Source of the DNA: Desulfosoma sp.
Lineage (GTDB): Bacteria > Desulfobacterota > Syntrophobacteria > Syntrophobacterales > DSM-9756
Length of the DNA stretch: 49,221 nt
Direction of reading: 5' to 3'
Assembly (NCBI GenBank): GCA_037481835.1
Contig: JBBFKW010000018.1
Location: forward strand, 1-49,221
The notes below the pieces were generated by a model, which was not told the origin of the DNA, did no database searches, and saw nothing but the letters and a program-made list of their open reading frames with translations. Every line of letters begins with the position of its first letter. The first letter of the stretch is position 1. Shown piece after piece: positions 1 through 16,671 of this stretch. A program made the position numbers and the translations under genes.

Positions 1-25
1 TAGGGGCGGGCCGATGTTCCCGCCC
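1..25 (+). repeat. Probable GTAG-family REP palindrome, truncated at the window start
   Basis: TAGGGGCGGG-CCGATGTT-CCCGCCC: (G)TAG followed by a GGGCGGG/CCCGCCC hairpin. Single copy in the window. Confidence 0.45.
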
Positions 26-57
26 ATCGTTTCTCTAACGCCTGCAGGAGTGCACAC

Positions 58-2781
58 ATGGGACTGTTCAATCTCGAGCGGATGTTCAACCCCAAGACAG
101 TGGCCGTCATCGGAGCCAGTGAACGCCCGGACAGTGTGGGCGCAGCCGTGATGCGAAACCTCGTGGATGGGGGGTTCCCCGGGACCGTTTATCCCATCAA
201 CCCGAGACGCTCCACCGTTCAGGGCCTAAAAGCCTTTCCCAGCCTTCGGGACGCTCCCAGTCCTATCGACCTGGCCATCGTGGCCACGCCCATCCACACC
301 GTCCCGGAGATCATGAAAGAATGCGGTGCCAAGAGCGTGGCGGGGGCCATTATCCTTTCCGCCGGAGGGCGGGAGATAGGGGAGGAAGGCCGGCGGCTGG
401 AAGAGGCCATCGCCCGCCAAGCCGCGGAAGCCAACGTGCGCATCATCGGCCCCAACTGCCTCGGGGTGATCATTCCGGGGGTGAAGCTTAACGCCAGTTT
501 CGCGGCCCACATGCCCAAGGCAGGCCGATTGGCTTTCATCTCCCAGAGCGGGGCCTTGTGCACGGCCATCCTGGATTTGTCCTTGCAAGAAGGCATCGGC
601 TTCAGCCATTTCGTCAGCATCGGATCCATGCTGGACGTGGATTTTGCGGACCTCATCGATTACCTGGGCAACGAATTCCGGGTGACGAGTATCCTCCTGT
701 ACGTGGAAAGCATCCCCAACCTGCGCAAGTTCATGAGCGCCGCCCGGGCCGTCTCGCGCATCAAGCCCATCGTCGTGCTGAAGTCGGGAAAAAGCCCGGC
801 GGGCGCCCGGGCGGCCTCGTCGCATACCGGGGCCATGGCCGGAGAAGACGCCCTTTATGATGCGGCTTTCCGCCGCGCCGGCGTGCTGCGCGTGCAGACC
901 ATCGGGGAACTTTTCGACTGCGCGGAACTCTTGGCCAAGCAGCCCCGACCTGAAGGCCCGCGGTTGGCCATCATCACCAATGCCGGCGGCCCCGGCGTCA
1001 TGGCCGCGGACGCGTTGGCCGAATACGGCTTGGAACCTGCGCCGTTGAGGGAAGAGACGCTGGCGGCGCTGGATGCGGTTCTGCCGCCGTGTTGGAGCCG
1101 CAACAACCCCGTGGATATCCTGGGGGACGCCTCACCCGAGCGCTATGCCAAGGCGCTCCAAGTGTGCCTGGATTCCACGGACATCAACGGCGTCCTGCTC
1201 ATCTTGACCCCGCAGGCCATGACCGATCCTACGGGAGTGGCCCGCCAGGTTGCTTCCATGGCCGCCCGCCGTCCCTGTCCCGTGCTGGCGTCCTGGATGG
1301 GCGGCGTGAACGTGGAAGAAGGCCGAAAAATCCTCAACCAAGCCGGCATCCCCACCTATGCGACCCCGGAGCAGGCCATTCGGGCCTTCATGGAATTGCA
1401 CCAGTACGCCGTGAACCAAAGGATGCTCAAGGAGATCCCCAAGAGGTTCCGGGGGGACCTGACCTTCGACACCGATAGGGCCGCAACGATTCTCCGCAAG
1501 GGGCTCGGCCGATCCAACGGGATGCTCACCGAGGTGGAATCCAAGGGGCTGTTGGAAGCCTACGGCATTCCCACCACGGCGACCCGGCTTGCCACGGACG
1601 AAGACCAGGCCGTCCTTTTCGCCAGGGACATGGGCTTCCCCGTGGTCCTCAAGATCAGCTCCCCGGACATCGTGCACAAGACGGAAGCGGGGGGCATCCA
1701 GCTGGATCTTCAAGACGAGGACCAGGTGCGAAAGGCGTTTCGCGCCATTGTGCAGAGCGCCCGCGCGTACAAGCCGGATGCCGAAATCCAGGGGGTGTCC
1801 GTTCAGCCCATGCTGCGCAGCGCGCAAGGTTCCGCCGGCGTGGAACTTATCGTCGGGGCCAAGAGAGACGACCAGTTCGGCCCGGTTATTCTTTTCGGCA
1901 TGGGCGGGATTCTGGCGGAGCTTCTCCAAGACCGTTCCCTGGGCCTTCCGCCCCTTAACCGGGCCCTGGCGCGGCGTCTCATGGAAGACACCAAGGTCTA
2001 CAAGGTGCTCCAAGGGTACCGCAATCTTCCGCCGGCCAACATGGCGGCCTTGGAAGAGCTGCTCATCAGGTTGAGCCAGCTCGTGACGGATTTCCCGGAA
2101 ATCGGCGAACTGGACATGAACCCGGTGATCCTCCAGCACGGCCGTCCCTGGGCTGTGGATGCCCGGGTGCTGGTGCGACCCAGCGCCGTGCCGTCGCCCA
2201 TGCATCTCATCATCAGCCCCTATCCGGCGCGCTATGAAAAGCATGCCGTAACTTCTTCCGGGCTTCCCGTGTTCATCCGGCCCATCAAGCCGGAAGATGC
2301 GCCCTTGCTGGTGGATCTCTTCCACGTGCTGTCGCCGACGAGCATCTACTTTCGGTTCTTCAGCCCCCTCAAGGAGCTTTCGGAGGACATGCTGGCGCGG
2401 TTCACCCAGATCGATTACGACCGGGAAATCGCCATGGTGGCCGTGGAAGAACCGGGAACGGGCGGGGAGAAACTGTTGGGCGTGGCGCGCGTGATCAGCG
2501 ATCCGGACGGCAAGAAGGCCGAATTCGCAGTGCTCGTGGGCGATCCCTGGCAGGGCAAGGGGATCGGCGCGTTGCTCCTGGAAATCTGCCTGCACATCGC
2601 CAAGGAGCGGGGGATCGAAACGGTGTGGGGGACGGTGCTTCAGGAAAACACGCAGATGCTGGCATTGGGACGCAAACTGGGTTTTCGCATCTGCAGGGTG
2701 CCTGAAACCACGGACTGTGAGTTGACCATTGACCTGCGCCACGTGAGCTTCGACGAGCACGGGCGCATCGTGCCCTCCTGA
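58..2781 (+). CDS. Acyl-CoA synthetase (NDP-forming)-like / GNAT fusion, Pat/Pka-type protein lysine acetyltransferase
   Basis: 907 aa. CoA-binding N-terminus (VAVIGAS, GPNCLG, SQSGA), SHTG motif, ATP-grasp region (LKISSPDIVHKTEAGG) and C-terminal GNAT (IRPIKPED...WQGKGIG). SD AGGAG upstream. Confidence 0.92.
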   Translation: MGLFNLERMFNPKTVAVIGASERPDSVGAAVMRNLVDGGFPGTVYPINPRRSTVQGLKAFPSLRDAPSPIDLAIVATPIHTVPEIMKECGAKSVAGAIILSAGGREIGEEGRRLEEAIARQAAEANVRIIGPNCLGVIIPGVKLNASFAAHMPKAGRLAFISQSGALCTAILDLSLQEGIGFSHFVSIGSMLDVDFADLIDYLGNEFRVTSILLYVESIPNLRKFMSAARAVSRIKPIVVLKSGKSPAGARAASSHTGAMAGEDALYDAAFRRAGVLRVQTIGELFDCAELLAKQPRPEGPRLAIITNAGGPGVMAADALAEYGLEPAPLREETLAALDAVLPPCWSRNNPVDILGDASPERYAKALQVCLDSTDINGVLLILTPQAMTDPTGVARQVASMAARRPCPVLASWMGGVNVEEGRKILNQAGIPTYATPEQAIRAFMELHQYAVNQRMLKEIPKRFRGDLTFDTDRAATILRKGLGRSNGMLTEVESKGLLEAYGIPTTATRLATDEDQAVLFARDMGFPVVLKISSPDIVHKTEAGGIQLDLQDEDQVRKAFRAIVQSARAYKPDAEIQGVSVQPMLRSAQGSAGVELIVGAKRDDQFGPVILFGMGGILAELLQDRSLGLPPLNRALARRLMEDTKVYKVLQGYRNLPPANMAALEELLIRLSQLVTDFPEIGELDMNPVILQHGRPWAVDARVLVRPSAVPSPMHLIISPYPARYEKHAVTSSGLPVFIRPIKPEDAPLLVDLFHVLSPTSIYFRFFSPLKELSEDMLARFTQIDYDREIAMVAVEEPGTGGEKLLGVARVISDPDGKKAEFAVLVGDPWQGKGIGALLLEICLHIAKERGIETVWGTVLQENTQMLALGRKLGFRICRVPETTDCELTIDLRHVSFDEHGRIVPS

Positions 2782-2815
2782 GGAAGGGCTTACGGGCCAT
2801 TGGGGAGGACATCCG

Positions 2816-3772
2816 ATGAACAAAAAGAAAATCCTCGTGGCCGTGGATGGATCTCGATGGGCCATGGATGCCGTCAGGTATGCCACCGAGGTGGGCGACC
2901 CTCAAAGAGCGGAGGTGGTCCTCTTTCACGTGACCATGCCCGTTCCGGAAAGCTTTTATGATGTGGAAAAGAACCCGGCCTTTCGAACCAGCCGCGCTCC
3001 CGCCCGGGCCTGGGAAGACGCGTGGCGCCTTATGATCGAGGATTTCATGGAAAGGGCTTCCCAAGTCCTGAAAAGGGCGGGGTTTGAGGGGGCCGGGGTT
3101 CAGGTGATCATCAAGACCCGGCAGGTGGGCATTGCGCGGGACATCATCACAGAAGCGGAAAAAGGCTATGACGCCGTGGTCGTGGGGCGACGCGGCATGA
3201 GCGACATGAAGGATTTGGTGCTGGGTGGCGTGAGCACAAAGCTGATAAGCCGCCTGAACCGGGTGCCCCTGTGGCTTGTGGGCGAAAAGAAGCGCGCCGA
3301 TGGTTTCCTTGTGGCGTTGGATGCTTCGGAGGAAGCCCTGAAAGCCGTCACCGTCGCCGCCCCGTTCTTGGCGGCCAAACCGCGCCAAGTTTTGCTGCTC
3401 CATGTGATTCGAGGTCTGGATCCCCAAACGGAAGCTCTGGCTCGATTCCTGGCCCCTGAAGACCAGAAGGATTGGCTGAAAAAAGTCTGGGAGGAAATGG
3501 AACGGGCCGCGGGCGCCATGGACGAGGTGTTGGAGAGGGCTTTCATGATTCTGGAAGAGCACGGGGTGCCGCGGGATCTGGTGCAGACAAGGGTCGTGAC
3601 CGGAGTCTCCAGCCGGGCGGCCGCCATCGTGGAGGAAGCCGAAACGAGGGGAAGCGCAACCATCGTCATGGGGCGGCGCGGCTTGAGCCGCGTTGAGGAA
3701 TTTTTCATGGGACGGGTGAGCAACAAGGTGATCCAACTGGCCAAAAAGCATACCGTCTGGATCGTCCAGTAA
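2816..3772 (+). CDS. Universal stress protein, tandem UspA domains
   Basis: ILVAVDGS...VVVGRRG...LGGVS, then FLVALDAS...IVMGRRG...MGRVSNKV. SD GGAGG upstream. Confidence 0.9.
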   Translation: MNKKKILVAVDGSRWAMDAVRYATEVGDPQRAEVVLFHVTMPVPESFYDVEKNPAFRTSRAPARAWEDAWRLMIEDFMERASQVLKRAGFEGAGVQVIIKTRQVGIARDIITEAEKGYDAVVVGRRGMSDMKDLVLGGVSTKLISRLNRVPLWLVGEKKRADGFLVALDASEEALKAVTVAAPFLAAKPRQVLLLHVIRGLDPQTEALARFLAPEDQKDWLKKVWEEMERAAGAMDEVLERAFMILEEHGVPRDLVQTRVVTGVSSRAAAIVEEAETRGSATIVMGRRGLSRVEEFFMGRVSNKVIQLAKKHTVWIVQ

Positions 3773-3930
3773 ATCCCGGCGTGCCTTCGGCCGGAGAGCA
3801 GCCGCGGGCCGGCGCCGGGAAAGGGTGGGCACGGGCTTGAGGGTTTGTGAAAGTTTTCAAGCAATCCATGCGAACTGCCGATTTAGTCTAAGGGAACAGC
3901 ACTGCTGCGACTTTCGAGTGGGAATTCCCC

Positions 3931-5223
3931 ATGGACGTCATCACGACCCATAAGAACGTGGATTTCGATGCCCTGGCCTCCGTTGTGGCCGCATCCCATC
4001 TTTACCCCGACGCCCGCATCGTCCTTCCTCGCAGTATCAACGCCAACGTGCGGGCGTTTCTTTCCATCCACAAGGATCTCTTTCCCGTTCTGAGCCCCTT
4101 GGAACTCCGCCACGACGAGGTCTCCCGCCTTGTCGTGGTGGATGCCAACCGCTGGGAGCGGCTCGATGGCCTGAACCAGCTCATGGGCCGCTCCGACCTG
4201 GAAATCCATCTTTTCGACCATCACCCGGAAATCGGCGACATCCACCCTTCCCAGGGCAAACAGGCCCTGGTGGGCTCGGCCGCCACGCTGCTCGTGCAGG
4301 AACTGGAGAAACGCCGCACAGGGATCGATCCCATCCACGCCACCCTCTTCTTGGCGGGCATCTATGAGGACACGGGACACCTTACCTTTCCGTGCACCAA
4401 ACCCGAGGACGCACGGGCCGCCGCTTTCCTCTTGGAAGTGCAGGCGGACCTGAACGTGATCCAAACGGCTTTGAGGCCGGGCTACGGGCCTCAGCACAAG
4501 GAGATCCTCACCCGCCTCCTGGAAACCGCCCGGCGTACCTCCTTGAACGGCCATGTGGTGTGCTTCGCCGACGCGGATCTCAACGGGCACGTGTCCGGAC
4601 TCGCCTCCGTGGTGGCCATGCTGCGGGACATTTTGAGCGCCGATGTGATCTTCGGCATGTTCTGGGACGCCCGGCGAAAGCAAAGCATCGTCATCGCCCG
4701 AAGCGGATCGGAAAGCGTGGATGTGGCGGCCATCATGAAGCCCTTGGGCGGCGGGGGGCGACCGGAGGCGGCGTCCGCCTTGGTCAAGGGGGCGCGCCCG
4801 GAAGGGGTGGAGACCTGGATTCGGGAGCTTTTGGCGCAAAACGGGCACGCGTCGGTGCAGATTTTCGACCTCATGTCCTTTCCCGTCTTTACCGTGGATC
4901 CGGATGACACGGTGGAGACGGTCCATGAGCAGCTTCGGGAGAGGGGCCACACGGGCGCACCCGTCATGGACGGGGAAAAACTCGTGGGCGTCATCTCCGT
5001 TCGCGACCTCGTCAAATTGGAACGGCCCACCCAGCGTTCGGCTCCCGTCAAAGCCTTCATGAAAAGGGATGTGGTCACCATCGCGCCGCAGGCCTCCATC
5101 ACCACCGCCTTGCGGCTCATGGTCAAACACGACATCGGGCGACTGCCCGTGGTGGACGACGGGCGCCTTGTGGGGATCGTCACGCGATCCGATCTGATGC
5201 TCTACTATTACAACCTCATTTGA
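3931..5223 (+). CDS. DHH/DHHA1 phosphoesterase-like protein with two CBS domains
   Basis: TTHKNVDFD, VVVD, FDHH, GIYEDTG and GGGGR motifs, followed by two CBS repeats (GAPVMD..LVGVIS; GRLPVVD..LVGIVT). Confidence 0.85.
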   Translation: MDVITTHKNVDFDALASVVAASHLYPDARIVLPRSINANVRAFLSIHKDLFPVLSPLELRHDEVSRLVVVDANRWERLDGLNQLMGRSDLEIHLFDHHPEIGDIHPSQGKQALVGSAATLLVQELEKRRTGIDPIHATLFLAGIYEDTGHLTFPCTKPEDARAAAFLLEVQADLNVIQTALRPGYGPQHKEILTRLLETARRTSLNGHVVCFADADLNGHVSGLASVVAMLRDILSADVIFGMFWDARRKQSIVIARSGSESVDVAAIMKPLGGGGRPEAASALVKGARPEGVETWIRELLAQNGHASVQIFDLMSFPVFTVDPDDTVETVHEQLRERGHTGAPVMDGEKLVGVISVRDLVKLERPTQRSAPVKAFMKRDVVTIAPQASITTALRLMVKHDIGRLPVVDDGRLVGIVTRSDLMLYYYNLI

Positions 5224-5452
5224 GGGGAAGAAACGAAGCCTTTAAGGGATGAAAGAGGGCTCGACCGCCATTTCCTTCGCCCATGCGAAGGCAGGGCAAG
5301 AAAGGCCGATTGGAGGGAGAAAAGGCGCGAACGGCCCGGTCAGGGGGGAGAATGCGGGGAGCCGGCCCATATTCTGGCAATCGGGAACCGAGCCGGACCG
5401 CTCACGCGCCGGAGCCGGGCCGCGGAATCGTGCGGCCCGGATACCCCTTTGA

Positions 5453-6775
5453 TCAGTAACCGCCGTCCACATCCACGCCGAAGCGTTCCCACTGGGCCTT
5501 GGCTTCCTGCTGGGCCTTCTCGATTTCCTCGTCGCTCCAGGGTTCGATGATCAGCGTGTCGGCCACCAGTTCCCAGATGTATTTCACCTCGTAAGTTGCG
5601 TCTTCCGGATAATACTTGGGCAGCCGTTTCATCATCTGGTCGTGGCAGTTGGAGCAGCCCACGACGACCACGTCCGCTCCGGCGTTCTTGATCTGCTTGA
5701 CTTTGTAGCGCCCGTGGTAGGCCGACTCCTGCTCGAAGGGCATGGGCCACATGCCGCCGCCGGCGCCGCAACAATAATTCATGCTTCGGTTGGGTTCCAT
5801 GTCCACGAACTGATCGACGCACTGCTGGATGATCCAGCGGGGTTCCTCATAGTAGCCCTTGCCGAAGTTGCGTTCCAGTTCGCGCCCGTGTTTACAGGAA
5901 TCGTGCCAGGTAAAGACCTTGCCCGCATTGCGGCTCTTGTCCAGCTTGATGCGCCCCTTCTCGATGATTTCCTTCAAATAATCGTAGAGATAGATATAAT
6001 CCACGCGGTTATTGGGGTCTTCCATGGAACAGACCTTCATTCCTTTGCGACAGCCATAAGATCCGCCGCCGCAGTCGGGCATGATCATGCGTTTGACCTT
6101 CAGCCGTTTCATGTGGTCGATCTTGCGCTGGGCCAAGGTCTTCGTCGCTTCGTAATTGCCCGTAAAAAGCCCCCAATCCACAGCCTCCCAGTTCGTGGAT
6201 GGAATGGTCCAGTTTTCCTTGGCGGCGTAGAAGATCTTCCACCACCACTTCATGTCTTCATTGTCGGCGAAAACTTCCTTGGAATTGGGGAAAAAGAGAA
6301 TATCCGCCCCTTCCTTGTCGATGGGCACATAAAAGCCGGGACACTCTTCGGCGGCCAGTTCAGCGCCCATGTCGGCCATGAGAAAGAGGTAATCTTCCAG
6401 CGGGATGGCCATGTTGTTGCCGGTGTTGAGGACGTTTTCCACGCCCTTGTGGAGAATGCCGGGAACCTGATCCCGAGGTCTCAGGTGCTTCATGTGCGCC
6501 AGGATGGCCACGATGTCAATGCCCATGGGGCAGGCGTGGGCGCAGCGGCCGCATCCCGTGCATAGCCAGGGGAACTTGGACTGGACGACCTCGTCCAAGA
6601 GCCCGAAGGAGAGCATGCGGATGACCTTTCGGGTGTCCCAGCCTTCCATGCCCGGCGTTCCCGTGATGGGGCAGCCGTTGGAACACGTGCCGCAGGTGAG
6701 GCACAAGGTGAGGTCGAATTTGTTCAGATATTCTTTGACGTCATCCCGGAGTTTCTTCGGAGCCAGCATGTCCAT
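5453..6775 (-). CDS. (Fe-S)-binding oxidoreductase, 2x[4Fe-4S] plus CCG domain (HdrD/GlpC-like)
   Basis: CLTCGTCSNGCP and CTGCGRCAHACP ferredoxin motifs, then WHDSC, CCGAGGG and GCSNC. Confidence 0.88.
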   Translation of the reverse strand: MDMLAPKKLRDDVKEYLNKFDLTLCLTCGTCSNGCPITGTPGMEGWDTRKVIRMLSFGLLDEVVQSKFPWLCTGCGRCAHACPMGIDIVAILAHMKHLRPRDQVPGILHKGVENVLNTGNNMAIPLEDYLFLMADMGAELAAEECPGFYVPIDKEGADILFFPNSKEVFADNEDMKWWWKIFYAAKENWTIPSTNWEAVDWGLFTGNYEATKTLAQRKIDHMKRLKVKRMIMPDCGGGSYGCRKGMKVCSMEDPNNRVDYIYLYDYLKEIIEKGRIKLDKSRNAGKVFTWHDSCKHGRELERNFGKGYYEEPRWIIQQCVDQFVDMEPNRSMNYCCGAGGGMWPMPFEQESAYHGRYKVKQIKNAGADVVVVGCSNCHDQMMKRLPKYYPEDATYEVKYIWELVADTLIIEPWSDEEIEKAQQEAKAQWERFGVDVDGGY

Positions 6776-6902
6776 GAACCTTTCCTCCTTGTTCGATCCC
6801 GTCGCCGCAGCCCGCGAAGCCCTTCGGGCGCCTCGCCCGGCGATGCGGAAAGCCGCTTTCCCACACTCGAGCTTTTCTATGTTCCTTGGGCCGGGAGATC
6901 AA

Positions 6903-6917
6903 ATAGGAATTTCCGAT
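6903..6917. promoter_or_regulatory. Putative operator palindrome ATAGGA-N3-TCCGAT
   Basis: Matches the palindrome at 12537-12551 at 12/15 positions. Lies 128 bp upstream of the CCG gene start. Confidence 0.4.
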
Positions 6918-6935
6918 TGAACGATCTCTTTCTCA

Positions 6936-7658
6936 TTAAAAAGAAAGATAATCTGACAATGAAGAATCAAGGAAGAGGCGGCCGTCCTGGAGGCGAAAGA
7001 CGCAATCGGCCAGGCGGCGCACCTGATCCGTGGAATGGGAAACCACGAGGACCGTCAACTGGCGCTTCAAGTCCAGGAGGAGGTTCTCGATGACCCGAGC
7101 CGCCTTTTCGTCCAGGGATGAGGTCGGTTCGTCGAGGAGCACCACTTCGGGATCCAGGCTCAGGGCTCGGGCGATGCAGAGCCGTTGCTGCTGCCCTCCG
7201 GACAGATGCCGGGCGTCTTCGTAGAGCCGGTCTTTGACTTCATCCCAAAGGTAAGCCTTCATCAGAGCCGTGTAGACCGTCTCCTCCAGGGTGCTTCGGT
7301 CTCGAACGCCCATGATCCTATGGGGGAAGGCCACGTTGTTGAAAATCGTCATGGGCAAAGGGTTCGGCATCTGAAAGACCATGGCCACACGGCGCCTCAG
7401 CGTAGGTGACGGAAAAGACGGGTCCGAGACACACCGCAGGCGACCGTCCAAGGTGATCCACACCTTTCCTTCCATGCGGGCTTCGGGGATTTCTTCCCAA
7501 AGCCGGTTCACGCACATGAGCAGAGTGCTTTTCCCCTGGCCGGACGGTCCGACGATGACGGCCAATTCATGGTCGTGGAAATCGGCGTCAATGTCTTGAA
7601 AAACGAATCGTGTCCCGTAGCGGAAGGACACCTTTTCCAGCCGGATTTTCACACTCAT
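6936..7658 (-). CDS. PstB-like ABC transporter ATPase
   Basis: Walker A GPSGQGKST, LSGGQQQRLCIARAL, LLDEPTS, MVFQMPNPLP. Confidence 0.88.
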   Translation of the reverse strand: MSVKIRLEKVSFRYGTRFVFQDIDADFHDHELAVIVGPSGQGKSTLLMCVNRLWEEIPEARMEGKVWITLDGRLRCVSDPSFPSPTLRRRVAMVFQMPNPLPMTIFNNVAFPHRIMGVRDRSTLEETVYTALMKAYLWDEVKDRLYEDARHLSGGQQQRLCIARALSLDPEVVLLDEPTSSLDEKAARVIENLLLDLKRQLTVLVVSHSTDQVRRLADCVFRLQDGRLFLDSSLSDYLSF

Positions 7659-7672
7659 GGCCGACGTGACCT

Positions 7673-8557
7673 TTATCGTCCGTAAAAAGCCCGGCGCCCC
7701 ACACGACGACGAATGGACAGAGCGACGAGGTAAAGGCCGAGAGAGAGGGTCAAGAGGAGGAGGGCCGCCCCGAAGCCCCGCTCCAATTCCTCGGATGAGG
7801 TGTATTGCGACGATACGTAGTAAATGTAAAAGGGCAGGGCCTCAAAGTTTTCCAAAAGCGACCGGGGCATTCCCGCAAGCGCGACGGCTCCTGTGAGAAG
7901 AATCACCGCGGTGTCTTCGGCGCACCGCCCGATGGCCAGGATGACCCCCGTGGCGATGGCGTTCAGGCTGCTCGGCAAGAGCACGTGCCAGAGATTTTGG
8001 ATGCGGTGGGCTCCGAGACTGAGCGCCGTGAGGCGCAGGGATAAGGGCACCCCTTCCAGGGCGGACTGGACGGCTCGGATCAGATAGGGAAGGACAAGGA
8101 TGCCCAGGCAGAAGCCGGAAAGCACCAGACACGGCCCGATCCTCACCGACACGAACCGATGCAGCGCCAGGGACAAGCTGAAACCGAAGAGGCCGATCAC
8201 GATGGAAGGAATCCCCGCAAGGATGTCAAAAGCGACGCTCAGCATCTTTTTGGTGCGGCCCCGTGCGAATTCGGCGAGATAGATCCCGGCGGCCAAGCCC
8301 ATGGGCACGGCAAAGCCGACGGCCAGAAGGACGACGGCGACGGTGCCGACCACGGCGGGCCACAACCCGTCAAAGACGGGAACTCTTCCAAGCACGGCGT
8401 CCCATGGGGGAGTGGAGCCGAAGAGGAGCGACAATCGCACGGCGGGGGCGCCTCGCCAGATCACAAAGCCGACCACCGCCCCTGCGCCCGAAAGGACCGC
8501 CAGGGCGCTTCCCGCCGCCCAAATTTTCAAGAGGAAAAACCTTGCGGCTGTTTTCAT
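7673..8557 (-). CDS. PstA-like ABC permease
   Basis: LAGIPSIVIGLFG and AIGRCAEDTA motifs. Start moved to ATG 8557 (MKTAARF), which overlaps the stop of the upstream gene (ATGA). Confidence 0.85.
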   Translation of the reverse strand: MKTAARFFLLKIWAAGSALAVLSGAGAVVGFVIWRGAPAVRLSLLFGSTPPWDAVLGRVPVFDGLWPAVVGTVAVVLLAVGFAVPMGLAAGIYLAEFARGRTKKMLSVAFDILAGIPSIVIGLFGFSLSLALHRFVSVRIGPCLVLSGFCLGILVLPYLIRAVQSALEGVPLSLRLTALSLGAHRIQNLWHVLLPSSLNAIATGVILAIGRCAEDTAVILLTGAVALAGMPRSLLENFEALPFYIYYVSSQYTSSEELERGFGAALLLLTLSLGLYLVALSIRRRVGRRAFYGR

Positions 8558-9432
8558 GGGCGGTTTTCCAAGAGCCGAGACCGGAGACTCCAGGCGGCGA
8601 GGGCGACGGCGGCATTCACGGCATAGAGGACCACCCCGCATACGAAAATGGACGCGAATTCCAGGCTTTGGAAATCGGCGGCAATTACCAAAGCGATATG
8701 GGCGGTCAGGGTTCGTGCCGAGTGGAAGAGGCTCGAGGGAAACACAGCGGCGTTTCCGGCGAGCATCAAAGAAATGAGGGTGTCTCCAAACGCCCTGCCG
8801 AAGGCCAAAAGAACCCCCGTGATCAAACCCGCTCGGGCGCACGGCAGGACGACCCACAGGAATTTTTCAGCCGGGCCGGCGCCCAAGGCGCTGGCCGCGA
8901 GGACGTATTCCTTGGGCACCGATTCCATGGCGTCAATGAAAAAAAGCACCATGGTGGGAGTGATCATCAGGGCAAGGACCAGCAGGGCCGAGAGGAGGCA
9001 GCGTCCCGAGCCGGCCTGAACCAGATCCCGAACCGTTGGGACGACAAGAAAGACACCGACGAAACCGTACACGACGGTGGGGATGCTGGTCATGGTCTGC
9101 ACAAAGCGGCGGACGAAAAACGCCGGTTTTGGTCGTCCGAAAATGGTGACGAAAGCCGCACAGCCCAAACTGGCGGGGATCGCCAGGGCCAGGGCCCCGG
9201 AAGACAAGGCGAGACTGGCCCCGATCATGGGCCTGATGCCGTATCGGCCTTGCAGGGGGGCCCAGTCTTGGATGAGGACGCGGAAGACTTGGCCGTGAGT
9301 GAAAAGGGGGAAGGACAAGACGAGCATGTAGACGAAAATGGCCCCGGTCAGCACCGCCGCCGTGATGACCGCTGCCCCCAGGATCATCCGCGCCGCCCGC
9401 TCGGACCTCGATCCGTCGTCCTGTCTTTTCAT
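8554..9432 (-). CDS. PstC-like ABC permease
   Basis: SIPTVVYGF, GRAFGDT and RTLTAHIA motifs. 4-bp overlap with the upstream gene. Confidence 0.85.
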   Translation of the reverse strand: MKRQDDGSRSERAARMILGAAVITAAVLTGAIFVYMLVLSFPLFTHGQVFRVLIQDWAPLQGRYGIRPMIGASLALSSGALALAIPASLGCAAFVTIFGRPKPAFFVRRFVQTMTSIPTVVYGFVGVFLVVPTVRDLVQAGSGRCLLSALLVLALMITPTMVLFFIDAMESVPKEYVLAASALGAGPAEKFLWVVLPCARAGLITGVLLAFGRAFGDTLISLMLAGNAAVFPSSLFHSARTLTAHIALVIAADFQSLEFASIFVCGVVLYAVNAAVALAAWSLRSRLLENRP

Positions 9433-10259
9433 GGGACAGGGATAAATCCCTGAGCCTCGATGATCGCCCTTCCCTCCGGACTGTAAAGGGTATCGAGAAA
9501 AGCCTTGACCAGCGCGGAGGGTTCCCCTTTCGTGTTGCTGTAGAGGCCCCTGGAGACCGCATAGGTGCCGTTACGCACCGTTTCCACGCTGGGGGTCACC
9601 CCGTCCAGGGTCACGGCAGCCACCGAGGCGTCCATGTGGCCGACCGACATGTATCCGATGGCCCCCGGATCCGTGGCCACGGCCGTCTTCATGGCCCCAT
9701 TGGAAGGCACCACGTCGGCCGTTGCCGCCACAGGTCCTTTTTTGAGCGCTTTTTCCCAGAAAACTTCCCGGGTGCCGCTTGCCTCATCGCGCGTGAAGAC
9801 GTGGATGGCCTTGTCCGGGCCGCCCACTTCTTTCCAGTTGGTCACAGTTCCAGCGAAAATGGCTTGGACCTGCTGCAGGGACAAAGATTTCACCGGATTT
9901 TGAGGATGGACCACCACGGCGACGCCGTCCAAAGCCCACTGGTGCACCTTCAAGTTGTAGGCGGCGATTTCCTCATCGGTGGGTTTTCTCCCGGAGTTTC
10001 CAATGTCCACGAGCCCTTCGCCCACTTGCTTGATCCCGACCCCGGATCCGCCGCCGGCAATGGTGATGCGAACGCCGGGGTGGCGGGTCATGATCTCCTT
10101 GGCCAAGGCCTGCATGACGGGAATATGGGCCGTACCTCCGGAAATCTTGATGGTGCCTTCCTTGCCCTGAAAGGCGTCGTAAGCTCCGGCGAAAACCTCC
10201 CCTGCAGGCAGGCACAGCGCGACGCACAAGATCGTGAAGAGCCATGTCCGTGTTTTCAT
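9429..10259 (-). CDS. PstS-like periplasmic oxyanion-binding protein
   Basis: Signal peptide, GGGSGVGIK, IGNSGR and TRDEASGTR motifs. The N-terminal motif is the atypical SGGTAH. Confidence 0.85.
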   Translation of the reverse strand: MKTRTWLFTILCVALCLPAGEVFAGAYDAFQGKEGTIKISGGTAHIPVMQALAKEIMTRHPGVRITIAGGGSGVGIKQVGEGLVDIGNSGRKPTDEEIAAYNLKVHQWALDGVAVVVHPQNPVKSLSLQQVQAIFAGTVTNWKEVGGPDKAIHVFTRDEASGTREVFWEKALKKGPVAATADVVPSNGAMKTAVATDPGAIGYMSVGHMDASVAAVTLDGVTPSVETVRNGTYAVSRGLYSNTKGEPSALVKAFLDTLYSPEGRAIIEAQGFIPVP

Positions 10260-10337
10260 GGGTTTCCTCCCGTAAATTCTTTTGTCTTCCAGAACCGAAC
10301 CGCGGATGCCCCGGGCCTTCGCCTGTCCCGGTCGCCG

Positions 10338-11117
10338 TCACGCCCCTTGGGCCGAAGAAATGGACCGTGCGGCCAGCAAGGCCGCTCCCAGAGCCCCTAG
10401 AACATCGGGGTTTTCGGCGGCCAGGAATCCGTCTCCCACGGCTTCCACCAGGAGTCGGCGCATGCAACGGTTATGGGCGACACCTCCGGCGAAAATGACC
10501 GGCTTTTCCAGGCCCACCCGGCGCAGCATGGCCAAAACCCTCTGGGCGATGGCGGCGTGCAGGCCCATGGCGATATTTTGGGCCTTTTCCCCGCGGGCCA
10601 TGAGGGACGTGGCTTCCGATTCGGCGAAAACCGTGCACATGCTGTTGATCTGGACGCGCTTGTCGGCCCCTAGGGCATAATCGCCGAAATCTTCCAGCGG
10701 GACTTGGAGGGCCGTGGCCATGAATTCCAGGAATTTTCCCGTGCCCGCGGCGCACCGGTCGTTCATTTCAAAGCGCAGGACCTTTCCCGACGCGTTCAGG
10801 GCGATGACCTTCGTGTCTTGACCGCCGATGTCCAAAACGGTGCGCGCCTCAGGGTAAAGGAAGTGGGCGCCGAGGGCGTAAGCCTGAATTTCGGTAACCG
10901 TGTCCACGCGCAGGTGCGCGAAGGTCTCCGCCACCAGCTTCCTTCCGTACCCCGTGGCCATCACGGGCACCCCGTCCGCATCGGCCAGGAGCCGGCGGCA
11001 TTGCCCGATGGGGTCGAAGGTGGTGGGCACCTTGGTCCAAGACCACAGGCCGGTTGCCGGATCCAAGACCACCCTCTCGATGGAACGGCTCCCCACATCT
11101 AGGCCGATGGTGTGCAT
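10338..11117 (-). CDS. ASKHA-family ATP-dependent activase (HgdC/DCCP-reductase type)
   Basis: IGLDVGS, LDIGGQDTK, MNDRCAAGTG, INSMCTVFAESE and FAGGVA motifs. Start is 11117 or 11132. Confidence 0.9.
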   Translation of the reverse strand: MHTIGLDVGSRSIERVVLDPATGLWSWTKVPTTFDPIGQCRRLLADADGVPVMATGYGRKLVAETFAHLRVDTVTEIQAYALGAHFLYPEARTVLDIGGQDTKVIALNASGKVLRFEMNDRCAAGTGKFLEFMATALQVPLEDFGDYALGADKRVQINSMCTVFAESEATSLMARGEKAQNIAMGLHAAIAQRVLAMLRRVGLEKPVIFAGGVAHNRCMRRLLVEAVGDGFLAAENPDVLGALGAALLAARSISSAQGA

Positions 11118-11143
11118 CGCTTCGCGTCTCATGCCCCAAAAGG

Positions 11144-12415
11144 TCAGCGGATCATTTCAATGAAGGCTTCCACCCGGGTCTTGAGCTGTTCCACATCCTC
11201 CATGCTGTAGTCCGTTTCGATGGCCAGCATGGGGATGCCCGCCTCGCGCAGAGCCCTTTCCACCTTGAAGCTTTCGATGCCATAGGGTTGGCAAAAAGAC
11301 AGACCGTAATGAATGACGCCCTTGACCTTGAGGTCCCGGGCCATGGCCACGATGTGTTCCAGCCTTTCCCGGTTGGGGGTGAAACACGCGCAATCGATGC
11401 GCATGTAGCGATCCACCAGGGCGTCCAACATGGCATCCAACGCCTGCCCTTCTTCGTCCACCAAATCCCGGGTGTTACGAGTGCCCACGCAGGATTCTTC
11501 GCCCACGACCACGGCTCCCGAGGATTCGATGATGTAAGGCAGTTTCCAGTTGGGAATGGCCATGGGACACCCGGAAAGCATGACCCTTTGAGCGCCGTCC
11601 ACCACGCCTTCCCCTCGGGCGATCTTCTGTTCCAATTCATCGCACAGTTCGGAAATCTTTTGGGTGAACCGCGCAGGATCGTCGTAAAAGCTCACCTGAT
11701 TGATGAGCAAAACGTCCCGGCCGGAAATGGGGGTCGGTTCGGCGGCACGCAACCGGTTGAGGCGTTGGAGGACGCGGCGGCGGTCATTGATGAGGCGTAT
11801 GGCCTTTTTCAGGCTTTCCGCCGTGATGGTGCGCCCGGTGAGGTTTTCGATCGTCTCTTTGAAGCGAAGGATTTCGGCTTTCCACAGATCCCGGTCGCAG
11901 GCCTGCTTCATCTGCGGGATTTCCATGACGTAGACCGGCGCATAGTCGGCGAAAATCTCGTAGGCCTTTTTCTTGCCGTCGCACGTGGTCTCCCCCACGA
12001 TAAGATCGCAGGATTCAAAAAAAGGGCAGAGCCGGGACAGCTTGAACCCGACGAACGACTTGATGAGGGCGCACGTGTTTCGCGGCAGGATCTTTTCCGC
12101 CTTGTCAAAACCCGCTTCCGCCCCGGCGCACAGGCCCACTTGAATGGCATCCGCCGCATAGACCAGTTCTTCAGGGACAAAAACGCAAAAGGTGCCCACC
12201 ACTTTCCGCCCCTGGGCCTTCGCTTCTTGAAGCTCCTTAATGCGCAGGCCGTGGATTTCCGACAGGACGAAATCGAGGTACTCCATGCCTCGAAGCCGCT
12301 TGTCCTGGCTCAGGTATATGTCCCCATAGAACTTGCCCAAGACTTCCAGAAGGCCCGCATGGGCGTCCAGGTCCAAATTGAGCTTTTCCCACATGGCTTC
12401 ATAGGATCCGGCCAT
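11144..12415 (-). CDS. Double-cubane cluster protein (DCCP; 2-hydroxyacyl-CoA dehydratase fold)
   Basis: 423 aa. Cys77 (GTFC), 115 (RNTC), 145 (ETTC), 309 (EESC), 342 (DCAC) and 375 (SFC) fit the six-Cys DCCP spacing as I recall it. Adjacent to the activase gene. Confidence 0.85.
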   Translation of the reverse strand: MAGSYEAMWEKLNLDLDAHAGLLEVLGKFYGDIYLSQDKRLRGMEYLDFVLSEIHGLRIKELQEAKAQGRKVVGTFCVFVPEELVYAADAIQVGLCAGAEAGFDKAEKILPRNTCALIKSFVGFKLSRLCPFFESCDLIVGETTCDGKKKAYEIFADYAPVYVMEIPQMKQACDRDLWKAEILRFKETIENLTGRTITAESLKKAIRLINDRRRVLQRLNRLRAAEPTPISGRDVLLINQVSFYDDPARFTQKISELCDELEQKIARGEGVVDGAQRVMLSGCPMAIPNWKLPYIIESSGAVVVGEESCVGTRNTRDLVDEEGQALDAMLDALVDRYMRIDCACFTPNRERLEHIVAMARDLKVKGVIHYGLSFCQPYGIESFKVERALREAGIPMLAIETDYSMEDVEQLKTRVEAFIEMIR

Positions 12416-12536
12416 CGACGATCTCCTTTCTCATTCACATGAGGTGACGGGGAACTTTCAAAGACTCAAGTTTTCTTCTAGGAAAACGGATTGCCGGAAG
12501 GCAAATAGGAAAGGGCGAGCCACGGTGATCTCATCC

Positions 12537-12551
12537 ATCGGAAGATCCGAT
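12537..12551. promoter_or_regulatory. Putative operator palindrome ATCGGA-N3-TCCGAT (ATC-N9-GAT, LysR-like)
   Basis: Perfect 6-bp inverted repeat 122 bp upstream of the DCCP start. Confidence 0.45.
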
Positions 12552-12566
12552 AGCTTATAAAAAAGC

Positions 12567-12819
12567 CACGGTCGGAATCGGGTAGGCAGGACTTTCTGGG
12601 TTTGTTGTCTCGCCGGATGCGGATCTGGGTTGGGGTTCGCTTCGCTCACCCCAACCTACGAGTTTCTTCAAGGATGTTGGCCGGCGAATGGAATATGTAG
12701 GTTGGGGTGAGCGCAGCGAACCCCAACAAAAATCTTTTCTATGAAAGTCTCAGCAACACACCCTGACCACAAGACTTTCATCCTTCGCCGCCGCGGCCCG
12801 TTTGTGATGGGGGTTTATC
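12567..12819 (-). repeat. Composite REP-doublet element, copy 1 (inverted, shorter)
   Basis: REP copies at 12629-12659(-) and 12697-12727(+). The flanks are reverse-complement homologous to 29342-29670 and 32821-33147. Confidence 0.8.
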
Positions 12820-12967
12820 GAAAAATGGGGGCTCGGCGGGGTGGACATATGGGGTGCCCGTGAGGGCTTTTGGGGCAGGATCCGGCCGAGGCGGGAGCCC
12901 CAAAAGGCGCGCTGGTGCGAGCGCGCACCTCGTGGGGGGAAGGTGGGGCCTCTTTAGGCCCCAAAGG

Positions 12968-13423
12968 TTAGAACTTCACGGTCTTGATGATGGATTCGTA
13001 TTCTTTGACTTCTTCCGGGGTGAGTTCCCGCCGCAGCAGCCTCTTGTTCACCAGGATGGGGCATCGTTCGTGGAGGGCCAAGGCGACGGCGTCGCTCGGG
13101 CGGCTGTCGAAGATGACTTCCTCGTCGCCGATCCGGGCGATGATGCGGGCGTAGTAGGTGTTTTCCTTCATGGTGTAGATTTCCACCCGCTCAAACTGCA
13201 CGCCGGCCCGCTGCAAAATGGTGAGGTAGGTGTCGTGGGTCAGGGGCCGCTTGGGTTCCACAAAACCCTTTTCCTTGGCGATGGCCGTGATTTCGCTGTC
13301 CCCGACGAACATGAGAAAATACTGGGTGGCGTCTTCCGATTCCTTCAGGATGACCATATTGCCCTGCTGGCGGTCCGTCTTGATGTAGACCTCGTTGGCG
13401 ACGATAAAGTCCTGATTTTCCAT
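12968..13423 (-). CDS. Bifunctional nuclease (DUF151/BFN) family protein
   Basis: PKRPLTHD, TYYARI and DSRPSDAVALAL motifs. SD GGAGGTG precedes ATG 13423. Confidence 0.88.
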   Translation of the reverse strand: MENQDFIVANEVYIKTDRQQGNMVILKESEDATQYFLMFVGDSEITAIAKEKGFVEPKRPLTHDTYLTILQRAGVQFERVEIYTMKENTYYARIIARIGDEEVIFDSRPSDAVALALHERCPILVNKRLLRRELTPEEVKEYESIIKTVKF

Positions 13424-13694
13424 GAGTTCACCTCCAGACGTGTGCGCTGCCGATTGGGGCGTTGCTGACCATTGCAGTGCATTATACCCAAACGGTTTGA
13501 TTTTTCCATCAAGCCTCTCCATTCCCGCGCCCATGGCGTGGAGCTTGTGGATTCATCCCGGCTTTACCCCGGGGGGATTCCCAATCCGGAGGAGCGGGCT
13601 TTGCGATTGCCCAGTCACAGCCCCAAGGGCACAGATCATTGAGGCTCATCTTCGCGAACATCTCTTTCGGGCCCCGGGCTCTTTTGCGCTCAAG

Positions 13695-13723: not shown

Positions 13724-13799
13724 AGCGGCGCTGATCGGTTCATGGCATGCAGCGCATCCCCATGAAGACTTTCTCGGAGATCCAAGGAGGAAGAAAAGC

Positions 13800-14180
13800 A
13801 TGAGAATCTGTTTTCCCGCAGCGCACCTCAGTGGCCTCGACAGCGAGGTTTTCGGTCATTTCGGATCGGCCCCGGGCTTTGTCATCGTGGATACGGAATC
13901 CGGGGCTGTGGAAGAGGTTTCCAACGGCGATCTGCACCATGCCCACGGCATGTGCCAGCCCCTCAAGGCCCTGGGAGGGCGATCCGTGGACGGCATCGTG
14001 GTGGGCGGGATCGGCATGGGCGCCTTGATGAAGCTCCAAGCCCAGGGCATCACTGTTTACCGAGCCATGGAAGGGTCTGTGAAGGAGAATCTGGACCTGT
14101 GGCGGCAGGGCAAGCTTCCGGTGTTTTCCACGGAATGGACCTGCGCCGGCCATCACCACGGCGGCGGCTGCGCCCACTGA
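13800..14180 (+). CDS. NifB/NifX-family (dinitrogenase Fe-Mo cofactor domain) protein
   Basis: VFGHFGSAPGF, CQP and VGGIGMGA motifs, with a His/Cys-rich tail. SD AAGGAGG precedes ATG 13800. Confidence 0.85.
   Translation: MRICFPAAHLSGLDSEVFGHFGSAPGFVIVDTESGAVEEVSNGDLHHAHGMCQPLKALGGRSVDGIVVGGIGMGALMKLQAQGITVYRAMEGSVKENLDLWRQGKLPVFSTEWTCAGHHHGGGCAH

Positions 14181-14689: not shown

Positions 14690-14690
<1 letters not shown>
14670..14690. terminator. Hairpin between convergent genes
   Basis: GAAGGCC-CTCTTCG-GGCCTTC directly after the cysS stop. Weak U-tract. Confidence 0.35.
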
Positions 14691-16170
<1,480 letters not shown>

Positions 16171-16174
<4 letters not shown>

Positions 16175-16671
16175 GAAGCGGCTCCTTGTTGCCTGTGGAG
16201 CAGGGCGACGGCGCAGGCGGCGATGCCTTCCTGGCGGCCGACGAATCCCAGCCCCTCGGTGGTGGTCGCTTTCACGCTCACCGCGTCTTCGGCCACTTCC
16301 AGAATCCGGGCGAGCGTGCGGCGCATGGGCAGGATGTACGGGGCGATCTTGGGCTTTTGGGCTAAAACGGTCACATCCACATTGACGATGCCGTAGCCGG
16401 CCTGGCGGATCAGGTCGCGCACCGCCCCGAGCAGCACCAGGCTGGAAACACCGCGATATTGCGAATCCGAATCGGGAAAATGGATGCCGATATCCCCCAA
16501 GGCCGCGGCCCCGAGCAGTGCATCGCACAGGGCGTGGCACAACACGTCGGCGTCGGAATGGCCGAGAAGGCCGCGATCAAAGGGAATGGTCACACCGCCG
16601 AGAACCAGGGGACGGCCTTCCGCGAAGGCGTGGACGTCCCAGCCCATGCCGATGCGAAGGTTCATTGTCAT
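16171..16671 (-). CDS. ispF: 2-C-methyl-D-erythritol 2,4-cyclodiphosphate synthase
   Basis: RIGMGWDVH, GHSDADV and KATTTEGLG motifs. Confidence 0.96.

Follow-up and report, generated by a model that had tools for sequence, protein, structure and literature searches.

What does an ATP-binding cassette (ABC) importer of the phosphate-transport (Pst) type carry when its genes directly follow those of a double-cubane cluster protein (DCCP) and its ATP-hydrolysing activase? The question is raised by contig JBBFKW010000018.1 of Desulfosoma sp. (assembly GCA_037481835.1), a stretch of 49,221 nucleotides that we call the window, in which seven genes run head to tail on the minus strand from position 12415 down to 5453. 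For the structurally solved DCCP of Carboxydothermus hydrogenoformans, the physiological substrate has not been known since the first description (PMC7317905; PMC9351452). We argue, with a rough probability of 45%, that the cluster belongs to the selenium-acquisition genes of the organism and would encode a selenium-oxyanion importer co-regulated with a DCCP-based reduction yielding selenide. Throughout, G000 is the genome of the window (3.63 Mb), the other G-numbers are related genomes, and L-numbers are fetched loci. Papers given by PMC number, as well as the Haft & Gwadz preprint, are cited for the parts of their text that were available.

The seven genes, in the order of reading and with the scores of the family profiles, are these:

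11144-12415, minus: DCCP of the class-I type with N-terminal extension (NF040772, 504.7 bits, cut-off 350)
10338-11132, minus: DCCP reductase, or activase, a BcrAD_BadFG ATPase (PF01869, 181 bits; TIGR00241, 210 bits, cut-off 125)
9429-10259, minus: periplasmic binding protein of a group that we call clade A of the PstS superfamily (TIGR02136, 225.2 bits, cut-off 206.6)
8554-9432, minus: PstC-like permease (TIGR02138, 163 bits, under the cut-off of 196)
7673-8557, minus: PstA-like permease (TIGR00974, 182 bits, under the cut-off of 193), with the start set at the ATG overlapping the PstC-like stop codon
6936-7658, minus: PstB-like ATPase (TIGR00972, 243 bits, under the cut-off of 343)
5453-6775, minus: iron-sulfur (Fe-S) protein of the HdrD/DsrK/HmcF-like kind, with two [4Fe-4S] motifs and a CCG domain (profiles)

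The order is thus DCCP, activase, binding protein, PstC-like, PstA-like, PstB-like and CCG. Only 11 bp separate the DCCP gene from the activase gene, and 78 bp separate the latter from the binding-protein gene; a consensus scan called no minus-strand terminator in this 78-bp gap. The binding-protein and PstC-like genes, as well as the PstC-like and PstA-like genes, share 4-bp ATGA overlaps, while the gaps from PstA-like to PstB-like and from PstB-like to CCG are 14 bp and 160 bp. Open reading frame (ORF) coordinates and family profiles therefore bear out the sequence-only reading of the locus, which had placed all these genes on one strand with short or overlapping gaps.

We first consider whether the importer is a phosphate system. 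Its binding protein has the PstS fold (PF12849, 146.8 bits, besides the TIGR02136 match), and its translation begins with a visible hydrophobic leader, by eye a putative signal peptide, which would place the start of the mature protein at about residue 25. The four-component architecture with two permeases is that of PstSCAB, and the Thr, Ser, Arg and Ser-Gly-Thr ligands of the anion are retained. On the other hand, the PstC-, PstA- and PstB-like proteins all missed the equivalog cut-offs, Gly, Ala and Gly occupy three of the phosphate-contacting places, and the PhoU/PhoBR context is absent. The genome retains a separate canonical system on contig C16, where its only phoU lies with phoR and phoB, divergent from pstC-pstA-pstS-pstB; the PstC, PstA and PstB encoded there passed the same cut-offs with 284, 210 and 413 bits. 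The importer beside the DCCP is therefore a second, divergent system and not the phosphate system of the genome, and the observation that phoU is missing from the cluster stands as it was made.

Clade A is a discrete group. When 301 genomes of the phylum were sampled, 18 scored at least 372 bits on the clade profile, and the next best score was 251. The closest solved structures of the binding protein are phosphate-binding proteins (4Q8R and 4GD5, E 1e-43; 4EXL, E 1e-39), while TupA, ModA and WtpA structures were absent from its PDB matches at E 1e-3. The importer also differs from TupABC, ModABC and WtpABC in having two permease genes rather than a single one.

The pocket departs from that of phosphate-binding proteins in one place, around the fourth oxygen of phosphate and its proton. 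In PBP-1 of C. perfringens, phosphate is contacted by S11, T12, S13, S41, S59, R125, S129, G130 and T131; S11, S13 and S59 crowd one phosphate oxygen, and S13 has been proposed to accept the proton (PMC5381212). By alignment, these residues map to G42, T43, A44, S72, G90, R157, S161, G162 and T163 of the window's protein, and the pocket residues of clade A also include H45 and R91. Gly42 and Ala44 thus replace S11 and S13, while in the alignment G90 stands at the position of Ser59 in 4Q8R and of the Asp in the D-type protein 4EXL. This is the place where an Asp (D-type) or a Thr/Ser (S-type) accepts the proton of phosphate (PMC13614923); the window's protein has neither.

We observed the same changes across the clade. 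G42, A44, H45 and G90 were invariant in 15 of 15 aligned members, and in a wider set of loci, described below, the motif GGTAH was found in 77 of 80 and [ST]GR in 72 of 80. Clade A thus carries G-G-T-A-H and (S/T)-G-R where the Pho-linked paralogues carry G-S-T-T and S-S-R and the canonical PstS of the genome carries G-S-S-T and A-S-R. Such a pocket suggests that the ligand would be an oxyanion without the fourth OH of phosphate, or a larger one, and selenite would fit it.

Is the adjacency of importer and DCCP more than an accident of one contig? Among 61 related genomes, binding-protein places were taken as orthologous at an identity of at least 56%; there were 25 such places in 24 genomes, of which 20 were fetched. 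Four places (G024, G026, G027, G038; not fetched) lay on contigs too short to judge. For the 21 that could be assessed, we found a DCCP-family match within 5 kb in 14 (G000, G001, G002, G004, G005, G007, G008, G014, G021, G023 twice, G032, G033 and G043), and none that close in seven (G016, G025, G029, G040, G048, G054, G058). In G014 the gene adjacent to the activase is a fragment of only 102 residues, with a full paralogue 4.4 kb away. The gene order varied: DCCP-activase-CCG-importer in five sister genomes, DCCP-activase-importer-CCG in the window, and DCCP-activase-importer in the neighbouring family.

In G040, one of the unlinked places, a remnant of 76 residues with 80% identity to DCCP is encoded 2.3 kb away from the binding-protein gene (L025, 12748-12963), and an intact DCCP is encoded on another contig. 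The remnant looks like a relic of the linkage.

A wider scan with the clade profile, using one genome per species, detected at least 528 relatives, and we took the best 80 loci (58-74% identity), 76 of them new. These came from Syntrophobacterales, Desulfobacterales, Syntrophales, Syntrophorhabdus, Desulfuromonadales/Geobacter and Desulfobulbales. The unit of binding protein, two permeases and ATPase was constant in all 80, as far as the contigs reach. When all flanking ORFs were clustered, DCCP was the commonest non-transporter neighbour (12 loci), and in 11 of the 76 new loci tblastn placed a DCCP or activase gene within the flanking sequence at hand. At least 3 kb of flank was available upstream in 56 and downstream in 51 of the 80 loci, so that neighbour counts are lower bounds. 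Among the new loci there were at least six arrangements of DCCP and importer, with DCCP upstream on the same strand, divergent, convergent or downstream.

With 81 DCCP-family matches over the cut-off in the 61 genomes, a random locus would be within 10 kb of such a match in about 0.6% of cases by our own arithmetic. The adjacency is far above chance. The survey of gene neighbourhoods that had been proposed for this locus thus showed a conserved and non-random linkage, at 14 of 21 places in relatives and 11 of 76 loci in other orders.

The other recurring neighbours of clade A point to selenium. SelB was the second most frequent neighbour in the ORF clustering (8 loci). Searches by tblastn with the SelA, SelB, SelB paralogue and SelD of the window's own genome placed SelB or its paralogue beside the importer in L010, L012-L014 (the same places as L029-L031), L033, L039, L042, L063 and L081. 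SelD lay beside the importer in L041 and L066 (directly upstream on the same strand), in L072 (directly downstream) and in L102. Either or both of YedE and DUF3343 were found near the importer in six loci: Pfam and NCBIfam scans of operon-adjacent ORFs detected DUF3343 in L049, L072 and L102 along with a YedE-like protein in L102, and a second tblastn round detected YedE in L017, L018, L020 and L072. L039 encodes a YedF-like protein (TusA plus DsrE domains) as well as a SclA-like desulfurase. The best family of the LysR-type regulators adjoining the importer in L039, L067, L085 and L104 was NF040786, the LysR family of selenium metabolism (260, 280, 212 and 301 bits; cut-off 250), with further LysR matches by tblastn in L069, L071, L079 and L090. 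For example, L102 reads DCCP, activase, YedE, DUF3343, SelD and importer, while in L063 a tRNA, the SelB paralogue, an ORF, DCCP and activase share one strand and the importer is divergent.

ARAGORN predicted selenocysteine tRNA genes (tRNA-SeC) in L033, L039, L042, L063 and L081. In L010 and L029-L031 it predicted a 92-nt tRNA-Cys(GCA) with the shape of tRNA-SeC beside the SelB paralogue. The window's genome has such a pair too: at C21:4209-7326 a SelB paralogue (TIGR00475, 278 bits; 34% identical to the main SelB) adjoins a 92-nt GCA tRNA of the tRNA-ReC/SelC* type, a type in which tRNA-ReC decodes UGA as Cys (PMC13582414). The pair is also present in L010, L029-L031, L033 and L063. It stands directly beside the importer in G002 and in Desulfacinum, whose cultured species D. 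infernum and D. hydrothermale (L012, L013) have the cluster; in L033 a CysS paralogue separates it from the importer.

Counting only genes of the SelB, SelD, YedE, YedF and DUF3343 types as strict markers, we found them in 17 of 96 distinct loci, and 10 of these 17 also had DCCP. As a control, we took 20 loci of the Pho-linked PstS paralogue, which is 36-42% identical to the window's binding protein, in the same order. PstC/PstA-type genes were present in all 20 (PstC was undetected in one) and PstB in 18; PhoB was found in 17, PhoR in 16, PhoU in 14, and either PhoB or PhoR in 18. None of these 20 loci gave a tblastn match to the DCCP, activase, SelB, SelD, YedE, YedF, DUF3343 or LysR queries, and in one there was a tRNA-SeC about 8 kb away. 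Conversely, PhoU was found in 1 of 100 fetched clade-A loci (L053), and clade A showed no genomic association with phoU or phoBR. In L053 a complete canonical phoB-pstSCAB-phoU-phoR set (1-6500) is located just upstream of a clade-A operon (10001-13260) on the same contig, so that the two systems can be compared there as a natural pair.

Earlier, the ligand had been proposed to be, probably, an oxyanion or a phosphorus compound. SelD, SelB, tRNA-Sec and YedE as neighbours and the lack of a link to Pho point away from the phosphorus half of that proposal and towards a putative selenium oxyanion. Selenium is the more likely substrate by this genomic context.

A shared promoter element ties the cluster to a selenium island elsewhere in the genome. 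Its copies in the window are:

12502-12512, minus: proximal box, TTTCCTATTTG, some 90 nt ahead of the start codon of DCCP
12537-12551, minus: distal T-N11-A dyad, reading ATCGGATCTTCCGAT, a candidate LysR-type recognition site
6900-6917, minus: T-N11-A box, reading ATCGGAAATTCCTAT and then TTG, about 125 nt upstream of the CCG gene

In the 3.63 Mb of the genome there are exactly two copies of the 11-mer TTTCCTATTTG, against 0.47 expected: one upstream of DCCP, and one on contig C9 between a selenium-type LysR gene and YedE. The C9 island comprises LysR_Se (about 76.3-77.2 kb; NF040786, 301.7 bits, cut-off 250), YedE (TIGR04112, 493 against 200), DUF3343, a selenocysteine-containing SelD and YedF (TIGR03527, 210 against 110). 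The distal 15-mer in the window ends 122 nt before the DCCP start and 32 nt upstream of the proximal box; the YedE promoter repeats this two-box geometry, with a second T-N11-A 15-mer ending in CC(T/G)AT exactly 32 nt upstream. Two boxes in such a layout are typical of LysR-type regulators. The 10-mer TTCCTATTTG has one more copy in the genome, its third and last, within the box that precedes the CCG gene. The generic dyad ATNGG-N5-CCNAT is unspecific alone, with 54 occurrences in the genome, and the case therefore rests on the specific 10/11-mer. A sigma-54 reading of the box was rejected by eye, the GG and GC elements being 17 nt apart and not 12.

In an alignment of seven genomes of the family, the block ATT(T/A)CCTATTTG is conserved upstream of DCCP, and the proximal box is invariant in all seven save for one base in G004. 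The element precedes both DCCP and CCG in G001, G002, G005 and G008, and the CCG box is also present in G003; G007 has an exact copy upstream of DCCP only. In G002, G005 and G008 the element also stands upstream of the binding-protein gene, and in the distant loci L079 and L104 it precedes a binding-protein gene next to a LysR_Se-like gene. Allowing at most one mismatch, we found it upstream of 9 of 77 clade-A binding-protein genes; for comparison, 5 of 400 random windows and none of the 20 control loci had it.

In the window, a single box would serve the genes from DCCP through the PstB-like ATPase, and a second box would serve CCG. Since the importer has its own copy of the element in sister genomes, co-regulation is better supported than an obligatory co-transcription of DCCP and importer. 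The importer promoter of the sister genomes appears to be of the DCCP type and, by its context, not Pho-like.

Other signals in the region were at the level of background. A consensus scan found 3 promoter-like sites against 2.1 expected and 6 terminator-like sites against 10 in shuffled sequence, and an Rfam scan of 5300-13600 at E 0.1 gave no match, hence no known riboswitch or leader. One further feature was read from the sequence:

5415-5440, minus: GC-rich hairpin directly after the CCG stop codon

This hairpin, which likely marks the end of the transcription unit, was uncalled in the terminator scan because it lacks a T run.

The DCCP itself closely resembles the solved enzyme. It belongs to the HGD-D fold (PF06050, 428 bits), and its residues 7-423 align to residues 6-422 of the Carboxydothermus protein (7YYL/6ENO) at E 1e-143. 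Being colinear from residue 7, it has the N-terminal extension of the 'class I' enzymes (PMC7317905). Ten of its cysteines (77, 96, 115, 130, 145, 258, 309, 342, 344 and 375) are matched by cysteines of the solved protein in the alignment. The seven-Cys regular expression of the Haft & Gwadz preprint does not match, because two of the spacings (18/18/29/163/32/32 here) differ slightly; yet C77, C96, C115, C145, C309, C342 and C375 each align with a Cys of the solved DCCP, by sequence alignment only. The ATP-dependent reductase gene follows 11 bp downstream, as noted, and is of the same BcrAD_BadFG family as the Carboxydothermus activase. The difference lies in the surroundings: the window's gene shares its conserved cluster with the genes of an ABC importer and a CCG protein, and has a box in common with the SelD island. 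The genome encodes a second, distant member of the HGD-D family at C10:44318-47408 (198 bits on NF040772, below the cut-off), which has an activase-like gene of its own.

The best NCBIfam matches of the CCG protein were HmcF, DsrK and TmcB, with scores far under the cut-offs (175 against 750; 157 against 400). With DsrK, HmcF and HdrD it shares the two ferredoxin-type cluster motifs and the CCG domain, but it looks soluble, is linked to DCCP and lacks a neighbouring gene for a membrane partner. In the five sister genomes no other protein of the cluster is as well conserved as this one (87-88% identity), which is 95% identical in G003.

How would these parts work together? The Pst-derived importer would take up a selenium oxyanion, most likely selenite, through a binding protein that keeps the anion-clamping residues of PstS and lacks the three that hold the fourth oxygen of phosphate and its proton. 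The DCCP would receive low-potential electrons from the activase at the cost of ATP, as shown for the Carboxydothermus enzyme, and would reduce selenium, in the form imported or as an intermediate, towards the selenide used by SelD. By analogy with DsrK, the CCG protein would probably relay electrons or reduce a thiol-bound selenium intermediate, which is speculation. One LysR-type box would govern the DCCP-activase-importer genes, CCG and the distant YedE-DUF3343-SelD island, and a selenium-associated LysR regulator probably acts on it. We consider a module for uptake plus reduction the most economical reading, in which DCCP and importer may be linked by shared control in a selenium regulon and not by the strict channelling of a substrate.

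Several observations weigh against this reading. The identity of the ligand, of the substrate of DCCP and of the regulator is inferred, as is the direction in which regulation works, so that every functional step comes from context. The pocket changes fit any ligand that lacks the fourth OH, or a larger anion, and do not tell selenite, sulfite and phosphite apart. The reduction of selenite to Se(0) needs no low-potential electrons, and only the step from Se(0) to selenide is strongly reducing. Besides, YedE, a putative selenium transporter by its NCBI name, is already present in the genome.

The distribution of the genes adds to these points. About three quarters of the clade-A loci show neither DCCP nor a selenium marker in the available flank, and each module occurs without the other. 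The importer is present without any over-cut-off DCCP match in G029, G048, G054 and G087; the last of these, 100% complete by markers, also lacks an over-cut-off SelD. Conversely, G003 (L153; same genus, 95% complete) has DCCP, activase and CCG (95%, 86% and 95% identical) with both boxes, and the clade-A importer was not found in its genome. Of the 14 DCCP loci that lack the importer, 12 are without a selenium marker; in the others DCCP is followed by YedF and SelD (G053) or has YedE and DUF3343 about 4 kb away (G058). A phyletic profile of clade A against SelD is uninformative because SelD is nearly universal in the phylum sample (275 of 301 genomes, and 17 of the 18 with clade A). There is also a weak phosphorus signal: PafA-like alkaline phosphatases lie directly upstream of the importer in L055 and L077, in a cluster that spans 3 loci, and a cluster of apgM-type mutases spans 4.

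The separate occurrence of DCCP and importer, together with the separate copies of the box that each unit has in sister genomes, would also be seen if the two were only regulatory neighbours, both in a selenium-responsive regulon, with DCCP not acting on the importer's ligand. DCCP might then process organoselenium, carrier-bound selenium entering via YedE, or a selenium-independent backup reaction. Elsewhere DCCPs are found beside a different ABC system, SAO (Haft & Gwadz preprint), and beside corrinoid methyltransferase clusters linked to methyl-selenide (PMC10418091). We nevertheless hold this explanation to be unlikely: DCCP is the most frequent neighbour of the transporter clade, and in the window and several relatives gaps of 11-110 bp separate the genes, which share a strand, and no terminator was called in these gaps.

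The importer could instead carry another oxyanion, in which the fourth OH of phosphate is absent or replaced, or a larger tetrahedral one, and DCCP would reduce it; candidates are sulfite, thiosulfate, selenosulfate, phosphite, arsenate, tungstate and molybdate. The Gly, Ala and Gly around one phosphate oxygen and the His gained nearby say 'not phosphate' without saying which ligand, the hosts are sulfate reducers and syntrophs, and the very negative phosphate/phosphite couple would suit an ATP-driven reductase. Still, the recurrent neighbours include no genes specific to sulfur, phosphonate, arsenic or molybdenum/tungsten, TupA, ModA and WtpA are missing from the PDB matches at E 1e-3, and what does recur, along with the shared promoter box, is specific to selenium. 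We would not expect this explanation to hold.

That the importer is an ordinary second phosphate system of relaxed selectivity, near DCCP by happenstance, is improbable: two Pst systems are common in bacteria, the binding protein passes TIGR02136 with phosphate-binding proteins as its best PDB matches, and PafA-like phosphatases stand upstream in 2-3 loci, but PstC, PstA and PstB cut-offs are all missed, the proton-accepting residue of both known PstS types is replaced by Gly (PMC5381212; PMC13614923), PhoU is adjacent in 1 of 100 loci while the paralogue of the same genomes is always Pho-linked, and the linkage to DCCP and selenium genes recurs across several orders.

The selenium reading has precedents in print. 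For 955 of 970 proteins, DCCP is found together with SelD, and it often adjoins selenium loci (Haft & Gwadz preprint), so that the correlation of DCCP with selenium is already published; the hint from gene neighbourhoods dates to 2015. For the SAO locus, where an ABC importer likewise stands next to DCCP and activase in selenium-using anaerobes, the same authors propose import followed by reduction by DCCP. SAO differs in having unrelated, selenocysteine-containing binding and permease subunits and a MerB-like lyase, whereas the window's importer is Pst-derived and has no selenocysteine codon. The words 'phosphate' and 'PstS' are absent from the available text of that preprint. The set of YedE, YedF, DUF3343 and LysR_Se (Lin et al. 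2015) shares neighbourhoods with clade A (L102), and the window's box is common to the YedE of the genome; as described, this set has no ABC importer ('ABC' occurs 0 times in the paper), and YedE is a membrane protein resembling secondary transporters.

Phosphate transporters carry selenite in plants, yeast and E. coli (PMC13188914, PMC9312934). According to the available text of these reviews, of 2022 (PMC9312934) and 2026 (PMC13188914), a high-affinity transport system specific to selenium has yet to be identified in prokaryotes. Our literature search found no paper linking a Pst-like ABC system to SelD, SelB or DCCP. The Pst-derived importer clade with the altered pocket, its selenium neighbourhood and the shared LysR-type box were not found in print by this search.

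The surroundings of the cluster hold several other features. Upstream of the DCCP promoter, at 12622-12734, lies a 113-nt palindromic element with 38-nt arms that are 89% complementary; as it has 351 BLAST matches in the genome, 30 of them on the window's contig, it is a dispersed REP-like repeat. The promoter region is flanked by genes for a protein with a bifunctional-nuclease domain (PF02577; 12971-13423, minus) and a protein with a Nitro_FeMo-Co domain of the NifX/NifB type (13740-14180, plus), neither of which recurs near the cluster in other genomes. A CysS ORF (14690-16540, minus) has about 120 additional N-terminal residues ahead of its TIGR00435 match, which may come from a mis-called GTG start, and a second CysS-like gene, 26% identical, is located on contig C1. 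The gene at 58-2781 (plus) encodes a 907-aa fusion of an ADP-forming acyl-CoA synthetase with a C-terminal GNAT domain, an architecture like that of the Pat protein acetyltransferases. The protein encoded at 3931-5223 (plus) has DHH/DHHA1 and two CBS domains, matches the first 428 of 880 positions of the model for A-adding tRNA nucleotidyltransferase and lacks the nucleotidyltransferase half.

A broader proposal, which we make tentatively and regard as rather doubtful, is that clade A would be the missing dedicated high-affinity selenite importer and class-I DCCP with its ATPase the dedicated reductase yielding selenide, both joined with YedE, YedF, DUF3343 and the SelB-paralogue/tRNA-ReC backup in a selenium-starvation regulon under LysR_Se. 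With the proteins named here, both the physiological substrate of DCCP and the uptake of selenium in prokaryotes become testable. The NCBI model TIGR02136 would name the clade-A proteins phosphate-binding proteins; if the selenium reading is true, the annotation 'phosphate ABC transporter' is wrong for many systems of sulfate reducers, syntrophs and Geobacter relatives, and organisms that rely on selenoenzymes in hydrogen and formate metabolism would have a defined route of entry for selenium.

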